This document shows, piece by piece, positions 337 through 51,622 of a stretch of 64,000 bases of DNA. The DNA is from a bacterium (GTDB lineage: Bacteria > Patescibacteriota > Minisyncoccia > Phycocordibacterales > UBA2100). The DNA lies in assembly GCA_030674455.1 (NCBI GenBank), contig JAUSGQ010000020.1, forward strand, positions 13,461 to 77,460, read 5' to 3'. A model generated the notes under the pieces. That model was not told the DNA's origin. It saw nothing but the letters and a program-made list of their open reading frames with translations, and searched no databases. The position numbers and the translations under genes are program-made. The stretch's first letter is position 1. Each line of letters starts with the position of its first letter.

Positions 337-469
337 GCCCGGTTAGTACAATGTGGCGTCGTTTCCGTCGCTGTTCAACTCGATTTTGTTGACTTCCTCT
401 CGTCTACAATTTGGCTGATTTTTGTTCAAGAAACTACACCCAAGACTACGCCACATTGTCCTACCGGGC
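337..469. repeat. TIR element family 'A' copy 1 (~135 bp, MITE-like)
   Basis: Left end GCCCGGTTAGTACAATGTGGCGT (337-360) and right end ACGCCACATTGTCCTACCGGGC (446-469) are near-perfect inverted repeats. Internal GTTTCYGYCG and ...CCAAGAC.ATGCC motifs are shared with copies at 3605, 43613, 45137 and 51483. Confidence 0.7.
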
Positions 470-504
470 TTGCGTGCAATATGAAAACGAGTAAGCTTCG
501 GCCA

Positions 505-550
505 TGCCCAGACACTAATACTGCCGTCGCCTCTATGAACACATTTTATT
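505..550. repeat. Fragment of the longer related element (matches the left end of the copy at 41119)
   Basis: ATGCCCAGACACTAATACTGCCGTCGCCTCTATGAACACA resembles 41119-41160 ATGCCCAGACACTCACTTTGGCATCGCCTCTTTATGAAAACA. Confidence 0.45.
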
Positions 551-800
551 GCATTAGACAACATTTCTCTTTCATCAAAAAACTCCAGTGGTCGCTGGAT
601 TTGTCTCGGCAGGAATTACGGCAGTATTAGTGTACGGGTATGCCTCATTACCCATGGATTTTCATCACAATCCTCACCGTTTGGGTATGCCTTACCTTTA
701 TCCTCGCGGGAGCTAGCGATAGGATAGACGTCACATTTGTCTTTCTTTTGGGCGCTGTTTTCACGACTATCATAGCCGTAAAGGGATTGCGTCCCGATGT

Positions 801-2402
801 TTGATTATTTCCAGCATGGAAATGATGCTTCGTTTTCCCAATCGAATCTTTTCCGTCTTTTTTGTAATTTGTAAGTGGAGTGCTAGACGCCACGCTTTGG
901 TGCATGGTGAATTGCGGCAGCTTGATGGCCCCTACCGGACCCTTCTCATTTTAGAGGAGCTCGGCGGAGTTTATCTAAAATTCGGCCAGATTCTCGCGAT
1001 GCGCATCGACCTTATTCCGGCGCGATATGCGGCGGTTTTGATGAATTTATTTTCGAACGTAGCTCCGCAGCCGAACCATTTATTCTTCAAAGCATTTGAA
1101 CGGGCAACGGGAAAGAAGCCGGACGAAGTTTTTGAAACGATAGACAGGGACCCCATCGGCATCGCATCTTTCGCGCAAGTTTACAAAGGCTTCATAGAGG
1201 GAAAGCCGGTCGCAATCAAAATTCAAAAACCGGATGCGGGTCTAGTGATTAAGGAGGATTTGCTGGTCCTTCGTTTTATTATCGAAGCTCTAAAAAAGTT
1301 CGGTTTTCTAGGTACCGTTTCCACCTCCCAACTCGTCGGGCAATTCACCGTATGGCTTCGGCAAGAGCTGGACTACCGCATCGAAGCGGCAAATCTTAAA
1401 GACATGTCAGAACAAATAAAAAAACACGGTTTGGAAAACCGCGTGCGAATACCAGGTCTTTACTCTCAATTTGTTACAAAAACCACGCTTGTCGAAGAAT
1501 TTTTCGATGGAGCAAGCGTCGATGATGTCATCAGGGGCCGCGTGCGCATATCTCCCGCCAAGCGCCTTAAAGCGGCAAAAGCATTTCAGCGAGACTTAAT
1601 GCGCCAGTCATGGGTCGACGGATTTTTCCACGCGGACCCGCACCCCGGAAACCTAATGATATTTGACGATGGGCGCATTGGATACATTGATTTCGGGATT
1701 ATGGGGCGCGCCTCGACCGCGCCTGTTCATTTTCTCCGCTTCGTCGAGGGAGCAGTAAACCGCGACGCCGCGTATTCTACAAAAAGTTTAATGCAATACG
1801 CTCACACGCGCATTAAGAACGAGGGAAGAGAATTATTTGAGAGAGAACCAAAATACCGAAATGCCGCTGACCTTGTCTTAAACTTCATCACACAAAAACT
1901 TTCGGAAAATCTTGTGCCGTTAATGGATGAATGGCATGAGCAGACGGGAAATCCCAATCTAAGCCTTTTCGAACGCAGCTCTTCCGTCGCTTTTTATAAA
2001 ATGATTAAAGAGGCGTCGAAACTCGGTGTTAAATTTCCGACAGATTCTATAGCGTTCGTGCGCGCTCTCCTCATTATCGACATGGTCTGCCTAAATCTCA
2101 GCCCGAAATTCAACATGATAGAGTCCGCAAAAGGATTCTTTGAAGAATTTCCCATGGAGCGCGTGGAGAGGGAGAATCCACTGTTCGCTCTAGAGCGTAA
2201 ATCCGCTCACATGACGCCGACATTCTCGCCGCATCTATTGGCCAACTCGGTCGGCAGACAATGGGACATTGAATACCAGGCGCACCGAAAAGGAATGGCC
2301 GCGCACCGCTACGAGAACAACAAACACCGGCTCATACGCCAGGTAGGCGCGCTTGCCGAGAAGTATCCGGAATTGTATACTACGTTGCGAGAGGTTTTAT
2401 GA
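801..2402 (+). CDS. UbiB/ABC1-family atypical protein kinase
   Basis: Motifs LKFGQILAMRIDLIP, FHADPHPGNLMI and IDFGIMG are characteristic of the ABC1/UbiB (aarF) kinase domain. True start may be an internal Met. Confidence 0.75.
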   Translation: MIISSMEMMLRFPNRIFSVFFVICKWSARRHALVHGELRQLDGPYRTLLILEELGGVYLKFGQILAMRIDLIPARYAAVLMNLFSNVAPQPNHLFFKAFERATGKKPDEVFETIDRDPIGIASFAQVYKGFIEGKPVAIKIQKPDAGLVIKEDLLVLRFIIEALKKFGFLGTVSTSQLVGQFTVWLRQELDYRIEAANLKDMSEQIKKHGLENRVRIPGLYSQFVTKTTLVEEFFDGASVDDVIRGRVRISPAKRLKAAKAFQRDLMRQSWVDGFFHADPHPGNLMIFDDGRIGYIDFGIMGRASTAPVHFLRFVEGAVNRDAAYSTKSLMQYAHTRIKNEGRELFEREPKYRNAADLVLNFITQKLSENLVPLMDEWHEQTGNPNLSLFERSSSVAFYKMIKEASKLGVKFPTDSIAFVRALLIIDMVCLNLSPKFNMIESAKGFFEEFPMERVERENPLFALERKSAHMTPTFSPHLLANSVGRQWDIEYQAHRKGMAAHRYENNKHRLIRQVGALAEKYPELYTTLREVL

Positions 2403-3606: not shown

Positions 3607-3741
3607 ACCCGGTCAGTACAATGTGGCATGGTTTCTGTCGCAGTTCATGCTCACATTATTATTTTTTCCCGACATATACATTTGATTGTTTTTGTTGAAG
3701 AAGCCACAACCAAGACAATGCCACATTGTCCTACCGGGCAT
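3605..3741. repeat. TIR element family 'A' copy 2
   Basis: Left TACCCGGTCAGTACAATGTGGCAT (3606-3629) and right ATGCCACATTGTCCTACCGGGCA (3718-3740). Internal GTTTCTGTCGCAG and ACAACCAAGACAATGCC motifs are conserved. Confidence 0.75.
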
Positions 3742-3766
3742 GTTGTTATGGTAGCACGCTTTTGGA

Positions 3767-4780
3767 CTAGATTTTGAGATTGGTCTGTGCGCGGCGGGAA
3801 GAGATATAGGCGAACACAATGAATACAAGGCCGATGAGTCCGGTAATAATTTCAGGAACGTGAACAAAAATCCCCGCGAGCATGGAAAGTGCGAGGCCAA
3901 AAATCGCATAGTGCGCGCCATGCTCGAGGTAGGGGAGATTTTCCAGCGTCCGAGCCCGCACGAGTCCAACGGTAAATGCCCGCACGAATATTGCGCCGAT
4001 TCCGAGACCCGCGATGATGACTGGAAGATTGGAGGTAATCGCGAACGCGCCAACAACGCCGTCGAGAGAAAACGCGGAATCAAGGACGTTCAAGTACACA
4101 AAGAGTGCTGCCCCTCCCGCGACAGCCCCCGCGCTTGTTTCCGTTTGGAATGATTGCGCCACCCCTTCTATCACTATAAAAAGCACGGCGCCTATGAGGC
4201 CTGCGACAAGAATGGTCGCGGCTTCCGCCGGCAACAGGGCGGCGCAGATAAGTAGCGTCACAAGAACAATGGCGATTTCTATCGCCTCGATGCCGCCCCA
4301 GCGTGACATGTGCATTTCAATCGCTTCTATCCAATGCACTGTTTTCCTATCATTAAAAAAATATTTGAGCGAGACCAGGAGTAGGAACACGCTTCCGAAC
4401 GACGCGATTGCGACATGTGCATTCTCAAGTTGCTCGCCATACGAAACCGGGTCAAAAAATGCAAGGAGCGCCACTGCGATGGGAGAGAGGCCGGCGGCAG
4501 CCGCGACAATGAGTATCGGGAGGACGAAGCGAGTGCCAAAAACCGCGACCGGAATACCCCAGACAAGAAATCGCTTCTGCCAGATAGCGTCCATCCGCGC
4601 GAGCACTTTCGCGTTCACCACGGCGTTATCAAAGGAAAGCGTTGTTTCCAAAATCGCCAAAAGCGCAACAAGAAGTAAAGCGCTTAAACCGCCCCATATA
4701 TAAGCGGCAACAAGCACGATTGCGGAAAGAACCGCAGGAAAAACGAGGACTTTCATAGGAATGCCATCATGGTAGCACAA
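3767..4780 (-). CDS. Integral membrane protein (DUF475/TerC-like, multiple TM helices)
   Basis: About 8 hydrophobic helices. LSFDNAVV motif resembles the SxDN motif of DUF475/TerC-type membrane proteins. Confidence 0.45.
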   Translation of the reverse strand: MCYHDGIPMKVLVFPAVLSAIVLVAAYIWGGLSALLLVALLAILETTLSFDNAVVNAKVLARMDAIWQKRFLVWGIPVAVFGTRFVLPILIVAAAAGLSPIAVALLAFFDPVSYGEQLENAHVAIASFGSVFLLLVSLKYFFNDRKTVHWIEAIEMHMSRWGGIEAIEIAIVLVTLLICAALLPAEAATILVAGLIGAVLFIVIEGVAQSFQTETSAGAVAGGAALFVYLNVLDSAFSLDGVVGAFAITSNLPVIIAGLGIGAIFVRAFTVGLVRARTLENLPYLEHGAHYAIFGLALSMLAGIFVHVPEIITGLIGLVFIVFAYISSRRAQTNLKI

Positions 4781-6055: not shown

Positions 6056-6146
6056 GGTTTAACCTCAAAGATATAACCTCAAAGATAGGGTTTATACACA
6101 AGGTAATTTATCTATCTCCGAAAGTTTAATCTTCGGAGGTTAGTGG
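6046..6146. repeat. Composite palindromic site P1 (TTGAGGTTTAACCTCAA + CTCCGAAAGTTTAATCTTCGGAG)
   Basis: Two adjacent hairpin-forming palindromes starting at the Doc stop codon. The same two modules recur at 6762-6875 and 7472-7545. Confidence 0.6.
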
Positions 6147-6761: not shown

Positions 6762-6875
6762 AATCTTTGAGGTTAAACCTCAATAGGAACAAGCAATATT
6801 TCACGAGCTGAAGAAATGCTTGGGGTACATCTGTCGCTAGCTACCTCCGAAGGTTAAGCCTTCGGAGGTTTTAGT
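6762..6875. repeat. Composite palindromic site P2 (TTGAGGTTAAACCTCAA ... ACCTCCGAAGGTTAAGCCTTCGGAGGTT)
   Basis: Inverted-order copy of the P1 modules on the other side of the HAD phosphatase gene. Confidence 0.6.
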
Positions 6876-6981: not shown

Positions 6982-7473
6982 ATGAATGTCAAAACATTTT
7001 ATTTTTATCTGAATGTCGTGTTATTTGCTATATGTTCAATTGTTTTTATCTTTATTTTCGGTAGAGGAATTCTAGTTATTATTGATGATTTTTCGCTATT
7101 ATATAGTCCGAATTATACTACTTCACAAGTTCTTACGTCTTTTTTGAAAATTCTAATCCATCTTCCAATCTCATTATTACTCACATTATACTTTGGAAAT
7201 AATATTTTAAAATCTCTCAAAAATAATGATTACTTAAGGAAGAAAAAATTTAAATTTGTTTTGCCCATTGTTGCATTTATACTTACAATCATAGGAATTT
7301 TGCTTCTGATTGGATATGGAATGATCTTAATTCAATCAGATCCCTCGATTACTGAAGTCGGTGAAGGTGTGGGGTTTGGTATTGTATTTTTATTTGTTGG
7401 AGGTTTGATAACTTCAACAGCATTTGGAATCATAGGATTTTTTATTGATAAACATTATATGAATCAAAACTAA
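6982..7473 (+). CDS. AT-rich hypothetical membrane protein
   Basis: 163 aa with 4-5 TM helices. The local composition (visibly AT-rich) differs from the surrounding DNA. Bounded by palindromic sites P2 and P3. Confidence 0.5.
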   Translation: MNVKTFYFYLNVVLFAICSIVFIFIFGRGILVIIDDFSLLYSPNYTTSQVLTSFLKILIHLPISLLLTLYFGNNILKSLKNNDYLRKKKFKFVLPIVAFILTIIGILLLIGYGMILIQSDPSITEVGEGVGFGIVFLFVGGLITSTAFGIIGFFIDKHYMNQN

Positions 7474-7545
7474 CCTCCGAAGGTTTAACCTTCGGAGGTT
7501 GACTTCCTCTATAATCATCTTTGAAGTTTTAACCTCAAGAAATAG
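7472..7545. repeat. Composite palindromic site P3 (AACCTCCGAAGGTT-T-AACCTTCGGAGGTT + TTGAAGTTTTAACCTCAAG)
   Basis: Perfect 14-bp-arm palindrome plus the TTAACCTCAA module. Confidence 0.6.
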
Positions 7546-12170: not shown

Positions 12171-12227
12171 TGTTCATACTCTTCCGCATACTGGTCATCT
12201 GCGGCTCACTCATGTATTATGTCGCAC

Positions 12228-12368
12228 ATGCCCGGTAGGACAATTTCGAATTGCTTTGTATGAATATTCACCAGCGTACCGCAAGAAATATTTCTCTAAT
12301 CACACTTTGCATGGTCTTTATTATTCCACCGACAACAGTAATTATTCGAAATTGTACTAACCGGGTAT
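12228..12368. repeat. TIR element family 'A' copy 3 (TTCGAA variant, opposite orientation)
   Basis: ATGCCCGGTAGGACAATTTCGAA (12228-12250) and TTCGAAATTGTACTAACCGGGTAT (12345-12368). The terminal ...CCGGGTATG supplies the ATG of the downstream ORF. Confidence 0.75.
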
Positions 12369-12735
12369 GACACACATCAACGCTCAAGAATTAAACGATT
12401 TTCGCGCGGAGCTTGAGGCAGAGGTGGACTCGCTCAAGGAGGAACTTGCCTCGCATGGAAAAGCAACTCCCGAAACAGGAGACTGGCAGGGAACAAAGGG
12501 AGAACTTAACGGAGAAGAAGCCGACCCGAACGACGCGGCAGACCAGATGGAAGAACTTGCGACAAATGTTCCTCTCGTGGAGGAGCTTGAAAAAAGATAT
12601 AAGGACGTCGCATCCGCACTGGAGAAGATCGAGAATAATGCATATGGTGTTTGCGAGAAATGCGGTGAGGAAATCCCACTGAAACGATTGCGTGCAAATC
12701 CGGCCGCGCGCACATGCGTAGATCACAGTAAGTAA
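12367..12735 (+). CDS. DksA/TraR-family C4 zinc-finger protein
   Basis: C-terminal CEKCGEEIPLKRLRANPAARTCVDH is a CxxC-x17-C-x2-H/C zinc finger following an acidic coiled-coil N-terminus typical of DksA/TraR. Confidence 0.7.
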   Translation: MTHINAQELNDFRAELEAEVDSLKEELASHGKATPETGDWQGTKGELNGEEADPNDAADQMEELATNVPLVEELEKRYKDVASALEKIENNAYGVCEKCGEEIPLKRLRANPAARTCVDHSK

Positions 12736-14454: not shown

Positions 14455-14463
14455 GTTATAATC

Positions 14464-14491
14464 ATTCTAGTATTTTGCAAAATACTAGAAT
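14464..14491. promoter_or_regulatory. Perfect 28-bp palindrome ATTCTAGTATTTTGCAAAATACTAGAAT (candidate operator), copy 1
   Basis: Located 17 bp upstream of the ArsR-like gene. Identical core at 14776-14803 and 20873-20898. Confidence 0.5.
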
Positions 14492-14507
14492 GGTTTAGAA
14501 TTCTCAT

Positions 14508-14804
14508 ATGCCTGACTTAAACATCAACCCAACAACTAATAATTACCGACGCCTCGAAAGAGTCGTAAAGGGTTTCGCTAATCATCGGCGGTTAGAGATC
14601 TTACATTTGTTACACAAGAGTCCGGAACTTTCAGTTGAGGATATTTCGGAGATATTGGACATCGGGTATGAAAACGCATCCGACCATCTTCGCAAAATGG
14701 CAATCGCTGGTTTAATTCTGAAGCGCAACGAGGGCAACAATGTTAGACACAAACTCACGACGCGCGCAGAATCTATTCTAGTATTTTGCAAAACACTAGA
14801 ATAG
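14508..14804 (+). CDS. ArsR/SmtB-like winged-HTH transcriptional regulator
   Basis: HRRLEILHLLHKSPELSVEDISEILDIGYENASDHLRKMAIAGLI matches the ArsR-type HTH pattern. Confidence 0.6.
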   Translation: MPDLNINPTTNNYRRLERVVKGFANHRRLEILHLLHKSPELSVEDISEILDIGYENASDHLRKMAIAGLILKRNEGNNVRHKLTTRAESILVFCKTLE

Positions 14805-14810
14805 ATTCTC
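14771..14810. promoter_or_regulatory. 40-bp palindrome (1 mismatch) with the same TTCTAGTATTTTGCAAAA core, copy 2
   Basis: GAATCTATTCTAGTATTTTGCAAAACACTAGAATAGATTC overlaps the stop codon of the ArsR-like gene. May act as a terminator hairpin and/or operator. Confidence 0.45.
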
Positions 14811-18927: not shown

Positions 18928-19012
18928 CAATCCAAATCCGGGGTTTTGGAGCCGAGGCCCCACATGAAATCAAAGTAGGCGCTTAGGGTGTTGGAAAATT
19001 CTTTGCTCTCTA
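18928..19012 (-). pseudogene. Duplicated 3'-terminal fragment of the TrmB-like gene (direct repeat / att-like)
   Basis: The 85-bp segment AATCCAAATCCGGGGTTTTGGAGCCGAGGCCCCACATGAAATC.AA.TAGGCGCTTAGGGTGTTGGAAAATTCTTTGCTCTC also occurs at 19766-19851. The minus-strand translation FIIESKEFSNTLSAYFDFMWGLGSKTPDLD* equals the C-terminus of 19764-20528. Confidence 0.7.
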
Positions 19013-19243
19013 TGATGAAGAAAGTGCCAGAAGATCGTGGTCATTGAAACTTCATTATTTTTTGTTATGCTTAAGTTATGACAAAGAAAAATATTACATT
19101 CATTGCAACGCAGTTCAGAAATAAGCCGGTGAATATCAGCTTCTACACCAAAGATGGCGAGCGCGTGAATTTTACTGCAACAGAAAAAACGCCTGTGAGG
19201 ACTCGCGTGCATTTCCGCGCTCGCAATCGTAAACCTTAAGAAA

Positions 19244-20528: not shown

Positions 20529-20868
20529 CTTTCTATGCTCGATAATGCCTTATATTAAGCCATTTCTTGAAACTAGCTAGATAATAATACATGAATTATG
20601 ACGGATTTCAAAGAGTTGGGACATACTTTACACACGAAGACAGGATGTTTGTCTTCGTACGGCCCGGGTCGCACCTAGCGGTCCATTTGCGAGTCATTCG
20701 ACTCACAAAAAAGTTCTTTCCGGGAAGTTATTCATAACTTTCCATTTGCGAATCAAACGATTTGCAAAAGCTTTTCGGCAAATTTTCTCTTCCATGAAAA
20801 TTTCCACCACATTTAAAGACTTGAGCACACCCGTTCAAGTCTTTTCCTTATCTGACGCTGATAGAAAC

Positions 20869-20904
20869 CTATTCTAGTATTTTGCAAAATACTAGAATAG
20901 ATTT
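20869..20904. promoter_or_regulatory. Palindrome CTATTCTAGTATTTTGCAAAATACTAGAATAG, copy 3
   Basis: 32-bp perfect palindrome ~70 bp upstream of the DinJ-YafQ module. Identical core to the copies at 14464 and 14771. Confidence 0.5.
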
Positions 20905-22631: not shown

Positions 22632-22667
22632 GCAACTTAGACGGTTTGTGGGAAAATTTGCAAGTTC

Positions 22668-22698
22668 CAATTTGCAATTTGCAAACAAAATTCCAAGT
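22668..22698. repeat. 31-bp repeat CCAATTTGCAATTTGCAAACAAAATTCCAAG upstream of purA
   Basis: Exact reverse complement found at 52800-52830, next to the purH-like gene. Confidence 0.6.
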
Positions 22699-35715: not shown

Positions 35716-36146
35716 GTGTCAGGTTCCAGGTTTTAGGTTCCAGACAAAAATGCAAAGCATCAATTCGTACAAAGACCTTATAGTGTGGCAAAAAGCTATT
35801 GATGTTGTCGCTGACACATATGCCATCACGCGAAAGTTCCCGTCTTTTGAGAACTTCGGACTTTCATCACAGATGCAACGAGCTGCTGTTTCCATCGCCG
35901 CGAATATCGCGGAGGGACGTGGCCGCGGGACACGAACCGATTACGCGCATTTTTTGGATATATCGAATGGATCAGTATCGGAACTGGAAACGTTGCTAAC
36001 AATTGCGAAGCGTTTGTCGTACTGTAGAGAAGAACAGTGTAGTAGAATGGAGGAGCAGTTAGGTGAAATCGGGAAAATGCTCGGTACTTTGCGTGCTAAG
36101 TTACGACGCTTCTCCTAACACCTGAAACCTGTCACCTACAACCTAC
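35715..36146. mobile_element. IR-flanked mini-element carrying a four-helix-bundle gene (copy 1)
   Basis: Left GGTGTCAGGTTCCAGGTTTTAGGTTCCAG and right CTAACACCTGAAACCTGTCACCTACAACCTAC are imperfect inverted repeats. The same IR words occur without cargo at 36599-36725 and 48926-49030. Confidence 0.45.
35750..36118 (+). CDS. Four-helix-bundle protein (PF05635-like, '23S rRNA intervening-sequence protein' family)
   Basis: YKDLIVWQKAIDVV...SQMQRAAVSIAANIAEG...FLDISNGSVSELETLL matches the family signature. Confidence 0.7.
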   Translation: MQSINSYKDLIVWQKAIDVVADTYAITRKFPSFENFGLSSQMQRAAVSIAANIAEGRGRGTRTDYAHFLDISNGSVSELETLLTIAKRLSYCREEQCSRMEEQLGEIGKMLGTLRAKLRRFS

Positions 36147-36151
36147 CCAAT

Positions 36152-36598: not shown

Positions 36599-36725
36599 GT
36601 GATAGGTTCCACCCAGTAGGTGATTCTGCTAAATCAGGTGCTAGGTACTAGGTTAAAATCAAAACAATGAAACTTCAAGAAATCCATCTCCCTGACACCT
36701 GTAACCTGACACCTATAACCTAATC
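36599..36725. repeat. Empty copy of the GGTG.(T)AGGT ... CCTGACACCTGTAACCT inverted-repeat element
   Basis: GGTGATAGGTTCCACCCAGTAGGTGATT...CTGACACCTGTAACCTGACACCTATAACCT, with no cargo ORF. Confidence 0.45.
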
Positions 36726-36727
36726 CT

Positions 36728-37378
36728 ATGCCCCAATCTCTAGCCAGCAAAAAATCAACGCAGGATTTCGTGCCAGTGCGCGAGGTGCGCGACGGAATTG
36801 TCGTTCTCAAAGACGGCGGCCTGCGCGCGGTACTTCTCGCGTCCTCAATCAACTTCGCTCTCAAATCGGACGACGAACAGACCGCTTTCATAACTCAATT
36901 CCAGAGCTTCCTGAATTCTCTTGATTTTTCCGTACAGATATTCATAGAGTCGCGTATGCTGGACATCCGCCCTTATGTCGCCACGCTCGAGGCTGCGCAC
37001 AAAGAGCAGTTGGACGACCTAATGCGCGTTCAGATACGGGAGTACATCGAGTTCATCAAGAGCTTTACAGAGACCGCCAGCATTATGACGAAGAATTTCT
37101 TCGTGGTAGTGCCGTATTCAACTGGAGGAATAGGTGCGGGACTTTCGGGGCATTCTTCGTTCCTGCCGTGGAAAAGAAAAAAAGGTTCCTCCGAAGAAGA
37201 AAATAAATCGTTCGCAGAACAAGTGTCCCAGCTGGAACAGAGAATCGGGATTGTTCAACAGGGGCTCGTGCGCACCGGCGTCCGCACCGTCCAGCTTGGA
37301 ACGGAAGAGACCATTGAACTTCTCTATAAATTATTTAACCCGGGAGAGGAAGGGAAGCCGATGGTACTTGAAAAGTAA
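36728..37378 (+). CDS. VirB4-like protein, N-terminal fragment (split gene)
   Basis: DFVPVREVRDGIVVLKDGGLRAVLLASSINFALKSDDEQTAFI matches the extreme N-terminus of Gram-positive-type VirB4 proteins (IPY..I.DGI...DG.Y.K...INF.L.S..E). The ORF stops exactly at the boundary of the inserted element. Confidence 0.55.
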   Translation: MPQSLASKKSTQDFVPVREVRDGIVVLKDGGLRAVLLASSINFALKSDDEQTAFITQFQSFLNSLDFSVQIFIESRMLDIRPYVATLEAAHKEQLDDLMRVQIREYIEFIKSFTETASIMTKNFFVVVPYSTGGIGAGLSGHSSFLPWKRKKGSSEEENKSFAEQVSQLEQRIGIVQQGLVRTGVRTVQLGTEETIELLYKLFNPGEEGKPMVLEK

Positions 37379-37850
37379 ATCCGAAATCCGAAGCACGAAA
37401 TCCGAAAAAATCCTAAATCCAAATATGAAAAAAGAAGACCGGAAATATGACTTGGAAGAAAGAAGTTTCTTGTTCGCAAAGAACGTGCGGGCCTTTGTGA
37501 AAAACTTGCCACGTTCCATTACCAGTATAGAAGACACGAAGCAACTTGTGCGGTCATCTGGGTCAATTGGCGCAAATTATATTGAAGCGAACGAGTCGTT
37601 GAGCAAGAAAGATTTTTTGCTACGAATACGCATCGCGCGAAAAGAGGCAAAGGAAAGCAAATATTGGCTACGACTCATAGATACCAATACTGATGGCTTA
37701 GAAAAGCGACGAGCGGAACTAGAACAGGAAGCCACAGAATTGATGATGATTTTAAGTTCGATTATGAGAAAATATGTTTAAAATTTCTTTCTTTTTTGGT
37801 TTTCGGCATTTTTTCGGATTTCGGATTTCGGATTTCGTGCTTACTATATA
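37379..37850. mobile_element. IR-flanked mini-element carrying a second four-helix-bundle gene, inserted in the VirB4 homolog
   Basis: Left AAATCCGAAATCCGAAGCACGAAATCCGAAAAAATCC and right GGCATTTTTTCGGATTTCGGATTTCGGATTTCGTGCTTAC are imperfect inverted repeats. Confidence 0.5.
37425..37781 (+). CDS. Four-helix-bundle protein (PF05635-like), copy 2
   Basis: ERSFLFAKNVRAFVKNLPRSI...RSSGSIGANYIEANESLSKKDFLLRIRIARKEAKESKYWLRL is the same family as 35750-36118. Start taken at MKKEDRKYD. Confidence 0.65.
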   Translation: MKKEDRKYDLEERSFLFAKNVRAFVKNLPRSITSIEDTKQLVRSSGSIGANYIEANESLSKKDFLLRIRIARKEAKESKYWLRLIDTNTDGLEKRRAELEQEATELMMILSSIMRKYV

Positions 37851-41118: not shown

Positions 41119-41404
41119 ATGCCCAGACACTCACTTTGGCATCGCCTCTTTATGAAAACAATCCTTGTGAGCAAACTTCGAACAATGGGACAAGTTCAGG
41201 TTACATCTAGGTATGCTTCGGCAATAAAGGTTCCTCGCGGCAAGCCGCGAGGAATTAGTGGAACTCGCTTCGCTCGTTCAGTCGCGCAGCAAGCTGCGCG
41301 GTATTCCACCTGTGTTGCGTCTTCGCTCGGACGAAGTGTGAGCAAGCTCCCACTTCGCTCCTCGCTAGCCACAATAAATTATGCCAAAGTTAGTGTACGG
41401 GTAT
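41119..41404. repeat. Long (286-bp) relative of TIR element family 'A' with structured interior
   Basis: Left ATGCCCAGACACTCACTTTGGCAT, and the right end ATGCCAAAGTTAGTGTACGGGTAT is its inverted repeat (20 of 24). The interior holds several GC hairpins (CCTCGCGGCAAGCCGCGAGG; CGCGCAGCAAGCTGCGCG; CGTCTTCGCTCGGACGAAG). The terminal GGGTATG supplies the ATG of the downstream gene. Confidence 0.6.
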
Positions 41405-42713
41405 GATATCCACAAAAACATTTCTTCATTACGCCATAACTATCACGATCATTCTCCTCGTTGGAGGACTCGCCGGATGGTATTACTTTCTCAACAAGCA
41501 AAAGCAGGCAATTTCCACGAGCGACACGGGGCGGGGGTTAGACTCGCCTGCGCCCGCTTTCGGCGGCAGTACGGGGAGCAATTACAGCAACGTCTCCGGA
41601 ACAATCTCCGATGGCACGCCCGTCAATCAGGCCAAAGCACCGCCCCGGATTTGGCAGGTTACAAAAACGCCGGTCGCAGGCATGGGATTTGTTACAAGCA
41701 CTTCTTCAGCCGCAACAACATCAGCTGCGCAATTGTATTTCGTTGAGCGCGCAACCGGATACATCCTAAAAGCCGATACGGAAACCAGCCTGATATCTCG
41801 ACTTACAAACAAACTTTTTGCCCGCACATATGAAGCGTCGTTCAGTTCGGACGGTTCCGTAGTTCTCCGCTCAATCGACGACCGGGGCAATATCACGAGC
41901 TTTGCCGGTGATAATCCTCTGCAAAGTGCAGCGACAGCCTCCACTTCTCCAACGAACTCTAAAGAGCTCGCTGGGGGCCCACTTTCCGGCAAATATTTGG
42001 AGCCCAATATTCGTATGATCGTGCCGATGCAGAAAACACGTGAATTGCTTCTTCTCATACCGAATGCGGGCGGGGGATCAAGCGTGGTTCTATCGTCATG
42101 GAACGGTATTAAACAAAAAACTCTTTTTTCATCGCCTCTTGCTGGATGGAAACTCTTCTCCCTCTCGGATGGGCGGATATTTCTTTCTCTCTTGCCTTCT
42201 GATGATGCGGCAGGCTACGCGTTTGAGTTAAAAAACGGCACCCTGGTACCGCGTTTAAGGAACATCCCCGGGCTGACGTTCCTGCCGCGAACATCGTCGG
42301 ATGCCGTATTATTTGGCGAATCGAGCGGAAGGCTTTCGCTCTTCTCAAGCGCCAAAGAAGGGGCCGAGAGGGTGTATCTTCCGCTTCAAACTGTAGCTGA
42401 TAAGTGCGTATGGGCTCCCTTAAACGCGCCGCTTCGCAGAGCGTCGGGCGAGCGACTCATCGCGTATTGCGCTGTTCCGCAATATGTCGCGTCAAGCAAT
42501 TTTCTTATGGATTGGTACAGGGGAGCTCTGCGCACCTCTGACTCATGGTGGCGCATTGATACTGCTACCGGAGAAGTAACGCCTCTGCTTGAGACCGAGG
42601 AAACTGACAAGGTTTTTGATGTGGAAAATCCGATCATTGACAGCTCGGGAGAGCAAATAGCTTTTATGGACGCGAAAGACAAGTCTCTGTGGCTTCTTCG
42701 CATAACACAATGA
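41403..42713 (+). CDS. Hypothetical membrane-anchored exported protein
   Basis: N-terminal TM ITITIILLVGGLAGWYYFL. 436 aa and Ser/Thr-rich. Confidence 0.45.
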   Translation: MISTKTFLHYAITITIILLVGGLAGWYYFLNKQKQAISTSDTGRGLDSPAPAFGGSTGSNYSNVSGTISDGTPVNQAKAPPRIWQVTKTPVAGMGFVTSTSSAATTSAAQLYFVERATGYILKADTETSLISRLTNKLFARTYEASFSSDGSVVLRSIDDRGNITSFAGDNPLQSAATASTSPTNSKELAGGPLSGKYLEPNIRMIVPMQKTRELLLLIPNAGGGSSVVLSSWNGIKQKTLFSSPLAGWKLFSLSDGRIFLSLLPSDDAAGYAFELKNGTLVPRLRNIPGLTFLPRTSSDAVLFGESSGRLSLFSSAKEGAERVYLPLQTVADKCVWAPLNAPLRRASGERLIAYCAVPQYVASSNFLMDWYRGALRTSDSWWRIDTATGEVTPLLETEETDKVFDVENPIIDSSGEQIAFMDAKDKSLWLLRITQ

Positions 42714-43612: not shown

Positions 43613-43753
43613 TACCCAGTTAGTACAATTTGGCATAGGTTCTGCCGCGGTCTTCATGCAGGAAAGGGAAGGGAAAAATCGCGTGACTCAAAATCGCCAT
43701 CGTTCGGTAAGAACGGGTGAACCAAAGGCAATGCCAAATTGTCCTACTGGGCG
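43613..43753. repeat. TIR element family 'A' copy 4
   Basis: TACCCAGTTAGTACAATTTGGCAT (43613-43636) and ATGCCAAATTGTCCTACTGGGCGTA (43731-43755). It lies between convergent genes, and its right TIR overlaps the last codons of jag. Confidence 0.75.
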
Positions 43754-44238
43754 TATTTAATTACAACTCTGCGGTTTCTTCCTTCTCCTGCTGATTCTGT
43801 TTTTACGTTCGGCGAATCGGCGAGCACGGTGTGTACTATGAGGCGTTCATACGCATTCATCGGCGTGAGTTCAACATCATACTGAAAAGAGCGCGCCCGT
43901 TCCGCCATCATGAGTGCTTTTGTTTCCAATTCTTTTATCTGTTTTGCCCGGTAGTCGTTAACATCCACCAAAAATTGGAGGTATTCAACGGCTTCTTCGA
44001 CTCCCTCCGCATTTCTGGCGGTCTCGCCTGTCGGAAAAGACTGTTTTTCAGCGATTTTCTTCACGAGATGGTCTATGGCATGCACCGTATCGCCGTGCAT
44101 CCCGATGAACTGGCGTGCATCCTGCATTTGTATCGCAAAAATCGTCTGTCCCGCGATTTGATTTTTTACAACGCCGGAATGAGAGACGCCGAGAGCCTCG
44201 AGCAACTCATTGAGAATCTTTTCAACCTTTTTTTCCAT
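43744..44238 (-). CDS. jag: Jag/KhpB-like RNA-binding protein (KH + R3H domains)
   Basis: The C-terminal R3H-like MNAYERLIVHTVLAD motif and position downstream of yidC match the yidC-jag operon. Start set at MEKKVEKILN. Confidence 0.65.
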   Translation of the reverse strand: MEKKVEKILNELLEALGVSHSGVVKNQIAGQTIFAIQMQDARQFIGMHGDTVHAIDHLVKKIAEKQSFPTGETARNAEGVEEAVEYLQFLVDVNDYRAKQIKELETKALMMAERARSFQYDVELTPMNAYERLIVHTVLADSPNVKTESAGEGRNRRVVIKYAQ

Positions 44239-44266
44239 GGGGCAACTATACCTCTCGAAAGAGAAA

Positions 44267-44404
44267 ATCCCAAATCTCAAAGTCCAAATCACAAACAAAC
44301 CTCAATATTCAAACATCTAATATTGAAAACGAATTCTGTTTTGTTTTTTTGAGCTTTAATTGACTGGAGCTTGTTTGGAGCTTGGAATTTGGGATTTGGA
44401 GCTT
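44267..44404. repeat. Intergenic inverted-repeat block, 'TTGGAGCTTG' family, locus 3
   Basis: CCCAAATCTCAAAGTCCAAATCACAAACAAACC ... CTGGAGCTTGTTTGGAGCTTGGAATTTGGGATTTGGAGCTT extends into the yidC 3' end. Confidence 0.5.
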
Positions 44405-45125
44405 ATGTCGTCATTGAACCTTCTGCCCATCAGCAATTCTTGTGCGATCATCGCGGTGTTGCTCGTCACCCAGTAAAGCGCAGCGGCGGAAGGGACTGCA
44501 TAGGCAAATCCGCCTATCATTATCGGCAGTGCGTATCGCATCATCATATCGGCGCTTCTTGCCATGTCCTTAGAGAATGTGCCGTCGGGAGCAACTTTTT
44601 TAGCAGCGCCCATGGAAAGGCGCGTATAGATAATCTGCGTTACTCCCGCGAGAATGGCAAGAACAAAACTTTTGCCGGCCATATTTATAAGCCCGATGAA
44701 TTCCATATTCACTCCGGAAGGGACAGAAATAAAAGCGTACAAGCGTTCGAGATTGATTTCTGGAAGACCGCCCCAGGCAAATATCCAATACAAAGCCAAT
44801 AAAATCGGAAGCTGGATAAATATCAGCCCGAAACTCGCGAATGGATGCACATCATTCTCTTTATAGAGAGCAAACATGGCTTTACCTTGCTGTTCTCTGT
44901 CATTTTTGTATTTTTCTTTCAGCTTTTCCAGCTCCGGCGCAATTTTTTTCATTTTTTGCTGCGTCTCGATGGCGCGCTTGGAGAGAGGGAAGAGGATGAT
45001 GCGCACAATTATCGTCAAGATAATAACGGCAATGCCTACGTCATGAGTAGGAAGAATATCTACGATATAAATAAGCCCGTTATAGAGCGGGTTATATACG
45101 GCGGCATGGAATGCGGATGAAATCA
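44356..45125 (-). CDS. yidC: Membrane protein insertase YidC (short form)
   Basis: Five-TM core with conserved PILLALYWIF and the hydrophilic groove Arg. Start set at MISSAFHAAVYNP (45125), because the longer ORF N-terminus merely translates the TIR element. Confidence 0.85.
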
Positions 45126-45136
45126 TCGGACTAGTA

Positions 45137-45275
45137 TACCCGGTCAGTACAATTTGGCATAGTTTCTGCTGTGGCTCCGTTTGCGCCACACCAGTCTGTC
45201 ACCATCGCGTGATTTATTCGAGTTTATCAAGAATAGCTGTAACCGAGGCAATGCCAAATTGTCCTACCGGGTGTA
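45137..45275. repeat. TIR element family 'A' copy 5 (between rnpA and yidC)
   Basis: TACCCGGTCAGTACAATTTGGCAT (45137-45160) and ATGCCAAATTGTCCTACCGGGTGTA (45251-45275). Confidence 0.8.
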
Positions 45276-45839: not shown

Positions 45840-46090
45840 AAATGCGTATAGCGTATGGAGTATAGCGTATGGAGGGCGTGAAGGGAAGTAGCAGTGCCAA
45901 TCTACAAATTTATCCCAATCTACAAATGTCTACGAATGACATATACGTCCATTTGTAGTTATTTGTAGTATTCGAATCATTCGTAGATTGGAACATTTCA
46001 TTGTCCCCACGCTATCCACACCTTGTGAACACCCGCGACAAAAAGCGCGGGACTATACCTTCGCGGCGGGACGCGTATAATGACCGGTCT
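45840..46090. other. Putative chromosomal replication origin (oriC)
   Basis: Lies between rpmH and dnaA. Tandem TATAGCGTATGGAG x2 (45848-45875), six 9-mers TCTACAAAT/TCTACGAAT in inverted arrangement (45901-45987) and a DnaA-box-like TATCCACA (46013-46020). Confidence 0.55.
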
Positions 46091-46229
46091 ATGCCCGGTA
46101 GGACAATTTCGAATCGTCTCATATGAATATATTCCTACCGAATCAAAAAAATGCTGGACGAGTAGAGGGGCAATGCCCTTGTGCGATTATTTGCGACCGT
46201 AATAATTCGAAATTGTACTAACCGGGTAT
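46091..46229. repeat. TIR element family 'A' copy 6 (TTCGAA variant) abutting dnaA
   Basis: ATGCCCGGTAGGACAATTTCGAA (46091-46113) and TTCGAAATTGTACTAACCGGGTAT (46206-46229). Internal CATATGAATAT is shared with copy 3. Ends in the annotated dnaA ATG. Confidence 0.8.
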
Positions 46230-47613
46230 GCCTCCTACTTCAATGATGTCCGCTCCCTCGATGACGAATCGGGAACTTTGGCAAAACGCCCTCGTGCAAA
46301 TCGAGCTTGGGACATCCGAGGCAAGTTTTCGCACCTGGTTTCGCAACACAGACATCTCCAGCCGCGACGGAAGCACCGTGCATGTATCCGTTCCGAGCAA
46401 AATCGTTAAGGAATGGCTCGTAGAGAAGCACCACAAGCTCATTTTGAAGGCGCTCCGCACGCTCGATAGCACGATCCGGACCGTCGAATACACCGTCCAC
46501 CGCTCCGCGACACCGCCGGCAGTTGAAAGAAAGCCCGGACGAGCCCCGTCTCCGGAAAACGCGTCGTTCGACCTCCAGTCTCTCTACATCGACAAGCGCG
46601 ACAACCTGAATCCGCGCTACACATTCGAGACATTTGTCGTCGGCCCGTTCAACCAGCTCGCTCACGCGGCAGCAAAAGCCATCCTCGAGCGTCCGGGACA
46701 GATTTACAATCCGCTTTTTATATATGGCTCGACCGGACACGGCAAGACTCACCTCATACAAGCTATCGGCAACTACTTCAAGAAGGCGCATGCCAACAAA
46801 AAAGTGCTGTATGTTACATCTGAGCGCTTCGCGGTCGATTACATCAACGCGGTTCGCGCCGGCCGCGCGAACGGATTCAAAGACCAGTACCGGCAGTATG
46901 ACGTTTTGATAATGGATGACGTCCAATTCATCGCGAATACCGAAAAAACACAGGAGGAACTCTTCCATTTGTTCAACGCGCTCCACGACAACAACAAGCA
47001 GATAGTTTTCTCGTCCGACAAGCACCCGAATTTCCTCCCCGGCTTCGAAGAACGGCTGCGCGGCCGCTTCTCCGCCGGGATGATCGCGGAAATTCCTGAA
47101 CCCGATATTGAGTCTAGAACGGCTATAATCAAGGCTAAAATCGAGCAACATGGATTCAATATTCCCGACGACATAATCCAGTACATCGCCGAGAGCGTAC
47201 GCGGCAACATACGGGAACTTGAGGGCGTCCTTAATATGATCGTCTGCAAATCCCAGCTCAAGGGCAAGGCGGTTTCTCATGCGGACGTGCGGGCGCTGGT
47301 GAAGCACAATATAAAACCGAACAAGGGAGTCTCAATTGAGGAAGTCGTGCGCAGAATTTCCTTGTATTACGAAATCCCGGAAAAAAGTATTTACGAAAAA
47401 ACCCGCAAGAAAGAAGTTGTTAAGCCGCGGCAGATAATCATGTATATGCTTCGTGAAGAATTCAATGTTTCGTATCCGTCGATAGGGGAAAAGCTTGGCG
47501 GACGCGACCATACCACGGTTATTCACTCATGCGAAAAAATAAAACATGAAATAAAGACCAACACGTCGCTAGAGCAAGAGGTCGAGCACATACGCTCTCT
47601 CATTCACTCGTAG
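46228..47613 (+). CDS. dnaA: Chromosomal replication initiator protein DnaA
   Basis: AAA+ Walker A GSTGHGKTHL, Walker B LIMDDVQF, sensor/box VII, and the C-terminal HTH DnaA-box-binding domain (GGRDHTTVIHSCEKI). True start may be an internal Met (MMSAPS / MTNRELW). Confidence 0.95.
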   Translation: MPPTSMMSAPSMTNRELWQNALVQIELGTSEASFRTWFRNTDISSRDGSTVHVSVPSKIVKEWLVEKHHKLILKALRTLDSTIRTVEYTVHRSATPPAVERKPGRAPSPENASFDLQSLYIDKRDNLNPRYTFETFVVGPFNQLAHAAAKAILERPGQIYNPLFIYGSTGHGKTHLIQAIGNYFKKAHANKKVLYVTSERFAVDYINAVRAGRANGFKDQYRQYDVLIMDDVQFIANTEKTQEELFHLFNALHDNNKQIVFSSDKHPNFLPGFEERLRGRFSAGMIAEIPEPDIESRTAIIKAKIEQHGFNIPDDIIQYIAESVRGNIRELEGVLNMIVCKSQLKGKAVSHADVRALVKHNIKPNKGVSIEEVVRRISLYYEIPEKSIYEKTRKKEVVKPRQIIMYMLREEFNVSYPSIGEKLGGRDHTTVIHSCEKIKHEIKTNTSLEQEVEHIRSLIHS

Positions 47614-48925: not shown

Positions 48926-49030
48926 AAGGTGTCAGACAAATAGGTGTCAGGTTCCAGCTGTCAGGTGTCAGGAGTATCCGAACCACAAGTATTTTCCTGT
49001 AACCTGTAACCTAAAACCTGTAACCTGATT
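48926..49030. repeat. Empty copy of the GGTGTCAGGT ... AACCTGTAACCT inverted-repeat element between convergent dnaN and PBP1A
   Basis: GGTGAAAGGTGTCAGACAAATAGGTGTCAGGTTCCAGCTGTCAGGTGTCAGG ... CCTGTAACCTGTAACCTAAAACCTGTAACCTG. Confidence 0.5.
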
Positions 49031-51468
49031 TCATTGAATCGTAAACGAAACTGTTTGTTCCGCGTTACCGAGAGAGCTTTCTGCAACGGCGCGCAATACT
49101 GCGGGTCCGTGCGTCGTCGGCATAAAAGAAACGGAATACGGAGGCGTTGTGGCGCTTCCTATAAACTGGCCATTCAGGTAGTAAGCGACACGCGATACGC
49201 TTTCGGGACGAGGGTGCATTGAGGAAATAGGAAATGAGGCGAACCCCGAGACACTAATGCCATTTTGCGGGCTCAAAATTACGAATTGACCCGGGGCTCC
49301 CGCGGCTGGAGTTGGCGCGGGCGCAGATGATACCTCCTCTGCAAATGGGGCAGGATTGGCGCTTGCCCACACCTGCACTGGATATTCCCAGCGTGCGAAT
49401 TGCGGGTCGGCGTATGGGTTTGAGGGCGGGCCGGAGCGCGGGTCGCCTTTGTTTATCCAATAGAGGATGTCGTGTATGCCCTGCGCGGGATTGCTGTTCC
49501 AGCTTCCCCGCAAAACCGGCGGCAAAGAATCAAGGTCTGTGTCGGGAGAAGGAGGTGGAAACTCCACAGACTGATATTTAGTGAGAGCGTATGCAAAAAC
49601 TTCATGCCACATGGGCGCAACGATAAATGCCGCTATCTTTTTTACCATCGGACTATTGTCATTGTTGCCGGCCCACGCGCCCATCGCAATTCCGGGCGTG
49701 TAGCCGATTATCCATGCGTCATGGAAATCATTCGTGGTGCCTGTTTTATCTGCTACCTGGAACCCTGGGAAGTAGAGGGGAGAGTTGGCGCCGAATTCCG
49801 GAGTCCGCGCGACGTTGTCGGAGAGGATATCGTTCATCTGGCGCGCGATTTGGCTGTCGATGACGCGCACGCTCTGTTCCGCATAACTCTCGAGGATGTT
49901 TCCCGCGCTGTCCTTTACTGTAAGTATCGGCGTCGGCGGATTGCGCACGCCGTCATTGGCGAATACGCCGTATGCGCCTGTCATCTCAAGAAGGCTTACC
50001 TCGCCGCCTCCCAATACGAGCGTTAATCCGTACTGGTCTTTGTCTCCCAGCGTTGTAATTCCCATGTCGCTTGCTGTTTTTAGGGAATCTGTTATTCCCG
50101 CGAGATAGAGAGTTTTAATTGACGGTACGTTTATTGATTGCGCAAGAGCATTGCGCAGCGTTATCGGCCCGCGGAACTTTTCGTCGTAGTTACCCGGCGA
50201 GTAGCAGGGAGCCTGGTTGTTCGTATAATCAGCCGGCTGGCAGAAGGTCGAGAACTGTGTCTGCAGGTCAAACACCACGGTGTCCGGCGTGTAGCCCTTT
50301 TTAAATGCGGTCGCGTATACAAACGGCTTGAAGGATGATCCCGGTTGGCGATTGGCGAGAGTGACATTCACCATACCGTCGATATTTGGGTCAAAATACC
50401 CGCGCGAGCCAACCATGGCGAGGATTTGTCCGGACTTCGGCTCTACCGCGACGAGACCCGCGTTCGAGGCATTGAAATTCTTTTCATTTTGAAGAGCGGT
50501 TTTGGAAACAACCTCTTCAGCTTTCTTTTGCAGGTCATAATCGAGCGTTGTTATGACCTGAAGACCGCCGCTTGCAACGGCATCAGCCCCGTACTTTTCT
50601 TCCAAGTATTCACGCACATAAAATACGAAATGGGGAGCCTTGATGCCTGCCTCTGCTTCATCCCTGAACGCTACCGTTTCATTTCTGGCACTCTCATATT
50701 CCGCGTCATCAATAAATCCGTTCTCTTTCATTTTTAGAAGCACGAGATTTTTCCGGCCTTCCAATTCGTCGCGGTGTCTGCCGTACGGAGAATAGCGCGT
50801 CGGAGCCTGGGGGAGCGCCGCCAGGTATGCGGCCTGCGCGAGGTCCACATCTTTCGCGTCGATGCCGAAGAAATATTGGCTCGCTTCCTCTACCCCATAA
50901 ATAGTCCCGCCGTACGAAGTTTCATTCAGATAGATATAGAGAATCTCATCTTTAGAATAAATGCGCTCAAGCCGTATTGCGAGAATGATTTCTTTCAGCT
51001 TGCGAATGATGGTTTTGTCCCGCGTAAGAAGCGCATTTTTTACGACTTGTTGCGTGATGGTGGAGCCGCCCTGCACGAAACCGCCGGAAAAGATATTTAC
51101 GAGCATGGCGCGCGCAAACGAAAGCGGGCGGAAACCGAAATGCTGGTAAAATGTGGCATCTTCGATGGCAATAGAGGCGTTCCTGATATTTACCGAGATG
51201 GCATCAAAGGGAACCGTGGTGCGGCGCATCGCGCCATGCACGTCGTAGAGGAGTATGTTTCCTGTACGGTCGTATATTTTTGTGGATTCATCCACTCTGC
51301 GGTTCTGAAAATTCTCCAGCGAGGGAATTGAGACAACGGCGCCCCACGCGGCCACGATGCCGACGATGAGCATGCTTAGGATAAAAATTGCCGCAAGCGA
51401 CATTTTGATTGCCTGAAAGAGATTGGCGCGTGAAAAATCTTTGCCGTAGCGGTTATATTTTGAGGACA
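49031..51468 (-). CDS. Penicillin-binding protein 1A (bifunctional glycosyltransferase/transpeptidase)
   Basis: GT51 motifs (EDATFYQHFGF, GGSTITQQVVKN, RKLKE) and transpeptidase SSFKPF, SIN and KTGTT, with an extra C-terminal domain. Start set at MSSKYNRYG (51468), because the upstream ORF extension translates the TIR element. Confidence 0.9.
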
Positions 51469-51482
51469 TGTTGGGTGGATTG

Positions 51483-51622
51483 TACCCGGTTAGCATACTT
51501 TGGCATAGTTTCTGCCGTCCTTCACCGCGCCTTCGTCTAAAAATCTTCTCCCGGTGCAATTCGAACGATTATATGTATAAAATCACAACCGAGGCGATGC
51601 CAAAGTGTTCTACCGGGTGTAC
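51483..51622. repeat. TIR element family 'A' copy 7
   Basis: TACCCGGTTAGCATACTTTGGCAT (51483-51506) and ATGCCAAAGTGTTCTACCGGGTGTA (51598-51622). Internal AGTTTCTGCCG and ACAACCGAGGCGATGCC are conserved. Confidence 0.8.

Follow-up and report, generated by a model that had tools for sequence, protein, structure and literature searches.

Start-codon-associated miniature inverted-repeat elements in candidate-phyla-radiation bacteria and a probable termination–reinitiation relay across them

The subject of this work is a family of short repeats dispersed over 64,000 nt of bacterial DNA (contig JAUSGQ010000020.1 of assembly GCA_030674455.1, positions 13,461–77,460 of the forward strand), a stretch referred to throughout as the window. 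[quoted passage not shown] The repeats and their duplications, the empty sites, the placement on start codons, a frame-specific ORF, covariation in the stem and a leaderless promoter signature were observed directly. Judged from sequence, insertion on a start codon is probably tolerated through a termination–reinitiation relay, in which an upstream ORF (uORF) carried by the element would pass ribosomes on to the gene.

The 24 nt end consensus gave seven matches in the window at three or fewer mismatches, and none of 100 dinucleotide shuffles contained any match; the matches coincide with the seven copies reported in an initial annotation, which had been made from the sequence alone. These elements (family 1) are 131–137 bp long with ends CCCGG...CCGGG, and their alignment shows ~45 nt conserved at each end, the ends being mutually inverted repeats (CCCGGTAGGACAAT... 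and ...ATTGTACTRACCGGG), around a variable middle. A sub-variant in which TTCGAA occupies the arm (12228 and 46091) proved real, both arms being altered in a compensatory manner. A sister family (family 2) has the ends CCCAGACACT...AGTGTACGGG (CCCAG...CGGG). The 286 bp sequence at 41119–41404, described earlier as a relative of the repeats, is one, but its exact extent is 41122–41401 (280 nt) and it belongs to this second family, while the presumed fragment at 505–550 is actually the left arm of a complete 132 nt family-2 copy at 507–638. The window total is seven family-1 and two family-2 copies, nine in 64 kb, and both family-2 copies end on ATGs (640 and 41403). The neighbouring genes, identified by Pfam, encode DnaA, a DksA/TraR zinc-finger protein, YidC, the RNase P protein and PBP1A. 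The copies and their associated features are as follows.

46094–46226, plus strand: family-1 copy on the dnaA start; TATG duplication at 46090–46093 and 46227–46230
46076–46081: native −10 box of the dnaA copy, TATAAT
46091–46126: relay uORF1 of the dnaA copy, MPGRTISNRLI then stop; ATGA overlap with uORF2
46123–46221: uORF2 of the dnaA copy, ending in TAA, then CCGGGT, then the dnaA ATG at 46228
12231–12365, plus strand: family-1 copy on the start of the dksA-like gene; duplication CATG (12227–12230) and TATG (12366–12369)
12215–12220: −10-like TATTAT of the dksA-like copy
12228–12263 and 12260–12370: uORF1 and uORF2 of the dksA-like copy; the TGA of uORF2 overlaps the gene ATG at 12367 (ATGA)
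3608–3738, minus strand: family-1 copy on the start of a 73-aa membrane ORF; gene ATG at 3606
3613–3741, minus strand: single 42-codon uORF of the 73-aa ORF copy, from the upstream ATG copy to TGA
3748–3753: −10-like TACCAT of the 73-aa ORF copy
45139–45271, minus strand: family-1 copy in the rnpA–yidC gap, within the yidC −10 box; duplication TACA/TATA in gene sense; the downstream duplicate makes TATACT, then 6 nt, then the ATG at 45126
51485–51617, minus strand: family-1 copy within the PBP1A −10 box; TACA in gene sense at 51481–51484 and 51618–51621; downstream TACAAT, then 9 nt, then the ATG at 51469
43615–43751, minus strand: family-1 copy between convergent genes; duplication TACG/TACG in gene sense
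338–468, minus strand: family-1 copy with no adjoining gene start; duplication CAAG/CAAG in gene sense
507–638, plus strand: family-2 copy on the start of a 54-aa ORF, ATG at 640; uORF1 504–518 (MPRH then stop), uORF2 535–630 with its TAG 9 nt before the ATG
41122–41401, plus strand: long family-2 copy (280 nt) at the start of a 436-aa gene in a type IV secretion system (T4SS)-like cluster; TATG/TATG
41119–41406: single 95-codon uORF of the 280 nt copy, from the upstream ATG copy to a TGA overlapping the gene ATG at 41403

All the placements first described for the copies hold, namely the rnpA/yidC gap, the dnaA ATG, the dksA-like ATG, PBP1A (the element ending 15 nt ahead of the ATG) and the 73-aa ORF, where the element ends at the ATG on the minus strand. 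The yidC and PBP1A copies do lie near starts; they sit within −10 boxes, not on the ATG. An R3H-domain ORF (43744–44298, minus strand) stops at a TAG within the 5′ arm of the copy at 43615–43751, so that the insertion replaced its last codons and stop.

A scan of one genome per bacterial or archaeal species with the arm cores GTAGGACAAT-N(92–122)-ATTGTACTRAC returned 78 loci, ~74 of them true copies, from some 27 assemblies, with up to 14 exact-pattern copies per assembly. The carriers are nearly all labelled Candidatus Kaiserbacteria, Paceibacterota, or Patescibacteria/‘Saccharibacteria’ metagenome-assembled genomes (MAGs), and the window DnaA is 82–93% identical to Kaiserbacteria/Paceibacteria DnaA proteins. 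From the scan hits and the DnaA identity, the family, spread as it is over many Kaiserbacteria/Paceibacteria assemblies, is common to a whole lineage of the candidate phyla radiation (CPR) and is not the oddity of one genome. A divergent family-1 copy lies on a start codon at 4448–4568 of locus L008, from a MAG labelled Bdellovibrionales (non-CPR), which could reflect a binning error or horizontal transfer.

Each copy was read in the orientation CCCGGTAGGAC...GTACTRACCGGG and the flanking 4-mers were then compared; of 80 copies from other genomes, 52 carried the same 4-mer on both sides. The 4 bp target-site duplication is mostly TATG, with TACA, TACG, CAAG, ATTG and CATA also represented, and three copies have a 5 bp duplication (CATGA, TATGA). 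Among the 23 copies with a 3′ flank other than TATG, 14 had identical flanks against 2.7 expected, a number reached in 0 of 10,000 permutations. TACA, TACG and CAAG cannot self-pair, and these are therefore true duplications rather than extensions of the stem. In 16 copies the 5′ flank has C where the 3′ flank has T. Copy pairs from the same genome have interiors 79–92% identical and unrelated flanks, and the longest ORF carried by an element is 95 codons in the 280 nt copy and 42–43 codons in the 131–137 bp copies.

Precise empty sites were found at orthologous loci in relatives. Four syntenic relatives (L079, L081, L100 and L101; DnaA 84–93% identical) keep the rpmH–rnpA–yidC/dnaA–dnaN/PBP1A neighbourhood with no element copy there, and in each the dnaA site is empty, with a single TATG. 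In L101 this site reads gcgTATAATgaccggtcTATGcaac, identical to the 5′ flank in the window, where the junction is gcgTATAATgaccggtcTATG(element)TATGcct. The empty PBP1A site of L081 reads cgTTGTACAATgcac, with a single TACA within TTGTACAAT, and the corresponding window junction is ttTTGTACA(element)TACAATcca. Both the yidC and PBP1A sites are without an element in L079 and L081, and at the locus of the 41122–41401 copy the neighbouring genes lie close together in these two genomes, again without the element. Paralogous 5′ untranslated leaders or a regulon operator were ruled out as the source of the repeats by the duplications and empty sites; conserved leaders of paralogous promoters were the scenario that the initial annotation had named as fatal to its proposal, and that scenario fails on the same evidence. 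Its description of a MITE-like, non-autonomous element is upheld by the terminal inverted repeats, the 4 bp duplications and the precise empty sites.

Because the duplication is staggered, a DDE-type transposase is the probable agent; such an enzyme would insert the element at TAYR tetranucleotides, duplicating 4 bp. The 4–5 bp duplication and the ends starting with CC resemble those of the IS1380 family, which is a candidate assignment. An nhmmer arm-profile scan of the related loci (~0.8 Mb) gave no solitary arms, and these loci contain no CCCRG...CYGGG inverted ends 0.4–3.5 kb apart with these arms. Movement of a different kind, as single-stranded DNA by the tyrosine (Y1) transposase associated with repetitive extragenic palindromic (REP) sequences, would make the element a REPIN-type hairpin doublet. 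REPINs and REP–RAYT systems share with it a hairpin-forming, non-autonomous, multi-copy nature and pairing kept by compensatory change, GTAG occurs within the 5′ arm, and there is a Y1_Tnp gene in the syntenic region of L079. Y1/HUH transposition leaves no target-site duplication, however, whereas variable 4 bp duplications are present here; REPINs are also not known to be associated with start codons. No arms flank the Y1_Tnp gene of L079, and 21 kb of L079 yielded no copy of the element; we regard this origin as highly improbable. That gene (L079 1319–2047, 242 aa, PF01797) lies within a conserved T4SS-like cluster (PrgI, TraC-like, TraG, pilin) near the origin region, and it is absent from L081 and L101.

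The ATG was not part of the scan pattern. Nevertheless, the ending ...ACTRAC-CGGGT-ATG was seen in 59 of the 80 copies, its ATG in each case being the first codon of an ORF ≥50 codons long, and starts at this offset from the element end comprised 59 ATG against one GTG. Family-2 copies, collected from metagenomes with an arm-only pattern, end on a start ATG in 20 of 22 cases. Surviving insertions fall into two main classes, those on the TATG of a gene start and those within a −10 hexamer. Starts of the first class do without a Shine–Dalgarno sequence, some being leaderless, where a −10 box lies 6–9 nt ahead, and others being coupled to the stop of an upstream gene within a few nucleotides. In the second class the duplication lies inside the hexamer (TACA followed by AT or CT, or TATA followed by AT), with 6–9 nt and then the ATG, and it leaves an intact hexamer on the gene side. 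Orientation is nearly uniform, the GTACTRACCGGG end facing the gene; the reverse-complement duplication CATA was seen in only one or two copies, and the −10-box insertions share one orientation, ~12 to 0. The earlier proposal that the element targets or creates translation-start contexts is supported by the proportion of copies ending at the T-ATG of a long ORF and by the relay ORF across the element.

The 3′ arm of family 1 contains a stop codon, TAA or in about one-quarter of copies TGA, which precedes the gene ATG by 6 nt and shares its frame. This stop (TRA) was fixed by the scan pattern; among independently found copies, 5 of 5 keep a stop. The interior of ~100 nt is stop-free in the frame of the arm stop in 55 of the 80 copies, against 15 and 12 in the other sense frames and 11, 19 and 30 in the antisense frames (P = 3e-19). 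A single conserved uORF from the upstream ATG was considered and rejected, as element lengths are not all multiples of 3, a discrepancy that is resolved by two-step chains with an ATGA overlap. When the length is a multiple of 3 (123 or 126) there is one ORF of 42–43 codons from the upstream ATG copy, and among the 24 copies of this kind that lie between two ATGs, 22 have the frame open. In the 125 nt class the frame is split: uORF1 (MPGRTISNRLV) ends in a TGA that overlaps the start of uORF2 as ATGA, and uORF2, of 32 codons, ends at the arm stop.

Chains were simulated by starting at the upstream ATG, translating, and restarting at any ATG within −4 to +12 nt of the stop. The family-1 chain reached the gene ATG in 42 of 56 copies, compared with 6.1 ± 2.4 (maximum 14) for shuffled interiors and 13 of 56 after a 1 or 2 nt deletion in mid-element. 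A non-redundant test used the hypervariable central 63 nt and one representative per 65%-identity cluster. Of 31 representatives on start codons, 25 had no stop in the relay frame, whereas each of the two control frames was open in 8 (P = 3e-10); representatives not on start codons showed no excess (6 of 16, against 8 and 4). Openness is confined to the start-codon copies, which places the constraint only where a relay would be needed. Family 2 has a different arrangement, with uORF1 (MPRH then stop) followed by a conserved internal ATG at ~nt 32, and the ORF from this ATG closes either with a TAG lying 9 nt short of the gene ATG or with a TGA that overlaps that ATG. Each of the 19 distinct family-2 copies is open in one of the two relay frames, against 1 of 19 in the third, and when restarts were allowed up to +25 nt, complete chains were obtained for 15 of 17, compared with 1.6 ± 1.2 after shuffling. 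In the window, 5 of 5 start-codon copies have complete chains.

These frames could also be read as a multiplied small-protein gene (~43 aa, MPGRTI...NYSKLY) with the peptide as the functional product, and the 42–43-codon frames of the multiple-of-3 copies between two ATGs are in keeping with this. It is the inverted repeats, however, that encode the conserved termini of the peptide, and these termini show no variation at any of the three codon positions; the middle of the peptide is not conserved, many copies split the frame into two ORFs, and openness is absent from copies off start codons. We give such a peptide very little credence.

Initiation in the host lineage was assessed on a sample of 681 other long ORFs from the fetched loci (L001–L081) and the window. 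Occurrences of TAnnnT rise sharply at −12 relative to the ATG (55 of 681, against a background of ~9), and upstream of the same ORFs there is no Shine–Dalgarno (GGAG-type) peak, the profile being flat. Together, the peak and the flat profile are the signature of leaderless transcription without Shine–Dalgarno use, and this suggests that leaderless or coupled initiation may be the rule in this CPR lineage. A hairpin that brings a Shine–Dalgarno sequence near the AUG was also considered; no such sequence is seen upstream of the element or of the genes generally, and the idea was rejected. At the 52 evaluable start-codon insertions, the sequence upstream of the 5′ ATG copy has a −10 box at leaderless distance in 17 cases and the stop of a long upstream ORF 4–16 nt away (an operon junction) in 21; both features occur at 3 sites and neither at 17. 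In leaderless and operon-junction contexts initiation appears to depend on the position of the ATG only, so the duplicated upstream ATG would keep its native position. At ~9935–10003 of L079 (CP066682.1), which is without the element, TATAAT-N9-ATG stands ahead of dnaA. The ATG of this stretch begins a native leaderless uORF of 19 codons, the TGA of which overlaps the dnaA ATG (ATGA), and such coupling is hence already in use at dnaA.

The same promoter data bear on an alternative in which the element is a portable leaderless promoter, with an outward −10-like hexamer in the 3′ arm, transcription from the gene ATG, and the uORF and hairpin irrelevant to expression. Both families have a hexamer at −12 to −7 from the ATG, TACTAA in family 1 and TAGTGT in family 2, which is the position of the native TAnnnT peak; the family-2 hexamer fits TAnnnT, and the near-exclusive use of ATG at element ends (59 against one GTG) is what leaderless translation requires. 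Against this, the critical final T, with which all native boxes observed end, is replaced by A in family 1, and stop depletion restricted to start-codon copies, the conserved ATGA junction and the internal ATG are left unaccounted for. As the whole explanation a portable promoter is unlikely, although it is plausible as a contributor alongside the relay, especially in family 2.

Termination–reinitiation and post-termination scanning are established in bacteria (PMC6728339), and the relay would make use of them in four steps. The duplicated ATG upstream of the element would keep the native initiation context. Ribosomes would start there and translate the element ORF, either as a single frame of 42–43 codons or as two joined by the ATGA overlap, or in family 2 as the 4-codon ORF followed by initiation at the conserved internal ATG. 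Their passage would unwind the inverted-repeat hairpin. The 3′-arm stop, which overlaps the gene ATG or precedes it by 6–9 nt, would then cause termination, and reinitiation would follow on the real ATG. Under this scheme insertions would persist on a TATG start only in the orientation that lets the element ORF carry ribosomes, or where the duplication recreates a −10 hexamer.

As the initial annotation had predicted, the whole unit folds into a hairpin, every copy giving a long structure of −40 to −58 kcal/mol with z-scores of −2.9 to −7.2, and compensatory changes are present in the consensus stem. That stem has 20 pairs with 98.8% of cells paired, values reached by 0 of 500 shuffles; the outer 10–11 nt of the arms were fixed by the scan pattern and their invariance is by construction. 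Ten stem pairs show compensatory double changes, with TTCGAA, TGGCAT, TAGAAT, TGCGAA and CTGTCT each complemented in the other arm. Assignment of a strand from the free stem columns was uninformative, with seven G.U pairs against five A.C pairs. As G.U is not in excess and both strands fold about equally, a need for pairing in RNA and one in the transposing DNA fit these counts alike.

A hairpin acting at the RNA level, as an RNase III site, a stabilising 5′ stem-loop or a gate sequestering the AUG, of the sort proposed for Correia elements, would make the ORF incidental. The very stable folds and the covarying 20 bp stem agree with it, the base of the stem pairs the upstream AUG with the U-A-U of the downstream start, and the C found in 16 of the 5′ flanks would add a C–G pair with the G of the start codon. 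However, the like folding of the two strands favours no RNA strand, the pairing could equally serve transposition, there is no Rfam match, and the ORF signal is not explained. We consider an RNA-level role of this kind improbable. In order, the alternatives to the relay are the outward −10, the RNA-level hairpin, the functional peptide and the REPIN-type element.

Several points weigh against the relay and the account built on it. Transcription start at the upstream ATG copy, translation of the uORF and reinitiation are steps that we infer from sequence. The invariance of the stop in the 80 copies is by construction, since TRA was in the scan pattern, and under the strict restart rule the chain is incomplete in 14 of the 56 start-codon copies. 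Owing to the common descent of the copies the counts are not fully independent, which the use of representatives partly addresses. The maintained pairing of the stem is not explained by the relay, nor does the relay give any account of the shared orientation of the −10-box insertions. A 5′-terminal AUG inside a long helix should be a poor leaderless substrate unless the ribosome loads co-transcriptionally. Finally, no autonomous transposase with these ends was found in the ~0.8 Mb of related loci.

The element is a MITE of a CPR lineage, for which a new and testable route to tolerance at start codons is proposed. No similar DNA was found in plasmid and phage collections, Rfam 15 gave no match at the gathering score for the whole window and none at E ≤ 1 for one copy, and no description of the element was found in the literature on CPR or Kaiserbacteria together with MITEs, leaderless initiation or reinitiation; the initial annotation, too, had recognised no described family. 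The nearest counterparts are the Correia elements of Neisseria (CREE/NEMIS), which are likewise MITEs of 100–155 bp with long terminal inverted repeats, a hairpin and many copies. Correia elements duplicate TA, contain an integration host factor (IHF) site and are not known to have a fixed register with start codons. The element described here is not one of them: it has a 4 bp duplication (TATG, TACA, TACG and others), an end that abuts the ATG, a frame-constrained uORF, CPR hosts, unrelated end sequences and no sequence similarity. Correia elements are often co-transcribed with their neighbours, carry outward promoters and affect mRNA (PMC3184786). The REP2 repeats of Neisseria and the Borrelia inverted repeats lie directly upstream of many genes and provide them with signals for expression, the ATG among them (PMC3184786). 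Terminal inverted repeats are lacking in REP2, and its promoter, ribosome-binding site and ATG are its own, whereas the present element takes its ATG from the target-site duplication, has no ribosome-binding site and leaves empty sites in relatives.

Small mobile repeats that are open in one frame and tolerate translation are known as the RPE of Rickettsia and the enterobacterial RU elements (PMC3184786, PMC2759123); these are read as part of the host protein, whereas the ORF here is separated from the gene by a stop and would serve solely as a ribosome conduit. None of the Correia elements, REP2 and Borrelia repeats or MITEs with gene-fused ORFs is known to be positioned on start codons to the nucleotide, and none is known to have a stop-terminated, frame-constrained ORF leading to the ATG. 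Stop–start coupling in bacteria places a stop over the next ATG or a few nucleotides before it, ATGA overlaps being known (PMC6728339), and the same architecture is present in the element, where the stop either precedes the ATG, by 6 nt in family 1 and by 9 nt in family 2, or forms an ATGA overlap with it. In mycobacteria a short ORF often stands at the head of leaderless mRNAs, before the main gene (PMC4633059; 10.1101/834739), and an engineered ‘leaderless bicistronic design’ follows the same logic (PMC10367133). Coupled uORFs known so far are chromosomal or engineered, whereas the putative coupling cassette here is carried by a transposon and installed by its insertion.

Other repeats were encountered in the same material. 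A third inverted-repeat family of ~97 nt (CCCAGCACCTTT...AAAGGTGCTGGG) occurs on the same metagenome contigs; what usually comes after it is TGTAAG or TATAAG rather than a start codon. Many intergenic regions of the window have short-period simple repeats just upstream of promoters or starts, the unit differing per region (AATTTGCAA, ACCTGTAACCTG, CGGATTT and GGAGCTTGGAATTTGG among them). These and the remaining repeats are listed below.

L087 730–827, 2059–2153, 2603–2699, 5616–6054 and 6533–6571; L088; L082 5313–5410: copies of the third family
Window 22654–22712, 52728–52848, 36109–36147, 36686–36724 and 48991–49029: simple-repeat regions
Window 37374–37411, 37808–37845, 27029–27120 and 44316–44407: further simple-repeat regions
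Window 14459–14496, 14770–14807 and 20866–20903: three copies of a 38 nt near-perfect palindrome, AATCTATTCTAGTATTTTGCAAAACACTAGAATAGATT
Window 16513–17331: three tandem 273 nt repeats (75–79% identical; 91-aa module) in an 886-aa ORF, 15678–18338
Window 6109–6141, 6838–6870 and 7468–7500: GC-rich, terminator-like hairpin CTCCGAAGGTTTAACCTTCGGAGG at three gene ends
Window 18929–19019 and 19766–19856: 91 nt direct duplicate, 95% identical, 837 nt apart

The elements mark true start codons to the nucleotide, and gene callers extend or misplace N-termini at their sites; the artificially long yidC and PBP1A N-termini pointed out in the initial annotation are instances of this. The survey also offers a first sequence-based picture of initiation in a CPR lineage, with no Shine–Dalgarno signal, a −10 box at −12 and stop–start coupling. 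If the relay is correct, it would represent a new route to transposon harmlessness, in which the element, instead of avoiding genes, settles on a gene's most sensitive triplet and the damage is repaired by a built-in coupling cassette, and it would explain how a repeat can be present at the start codons of core genes, dnaA among them, when the genome is <1 Mb. A more speculative extension, which we hold to be doubtful, is that a self-neutralising transposon has colonised the starts of essential genes and that its hairpin and uORF cassette has been co-opted in Kaiserbacteria as a shared translational gate. Were this so, about one gene in 10, including dnaA, dksA, yidC and PBP1A, would depend on uORF translation and hairpin unwinding, and the expression of those genes would be coupled to ribosome availability.

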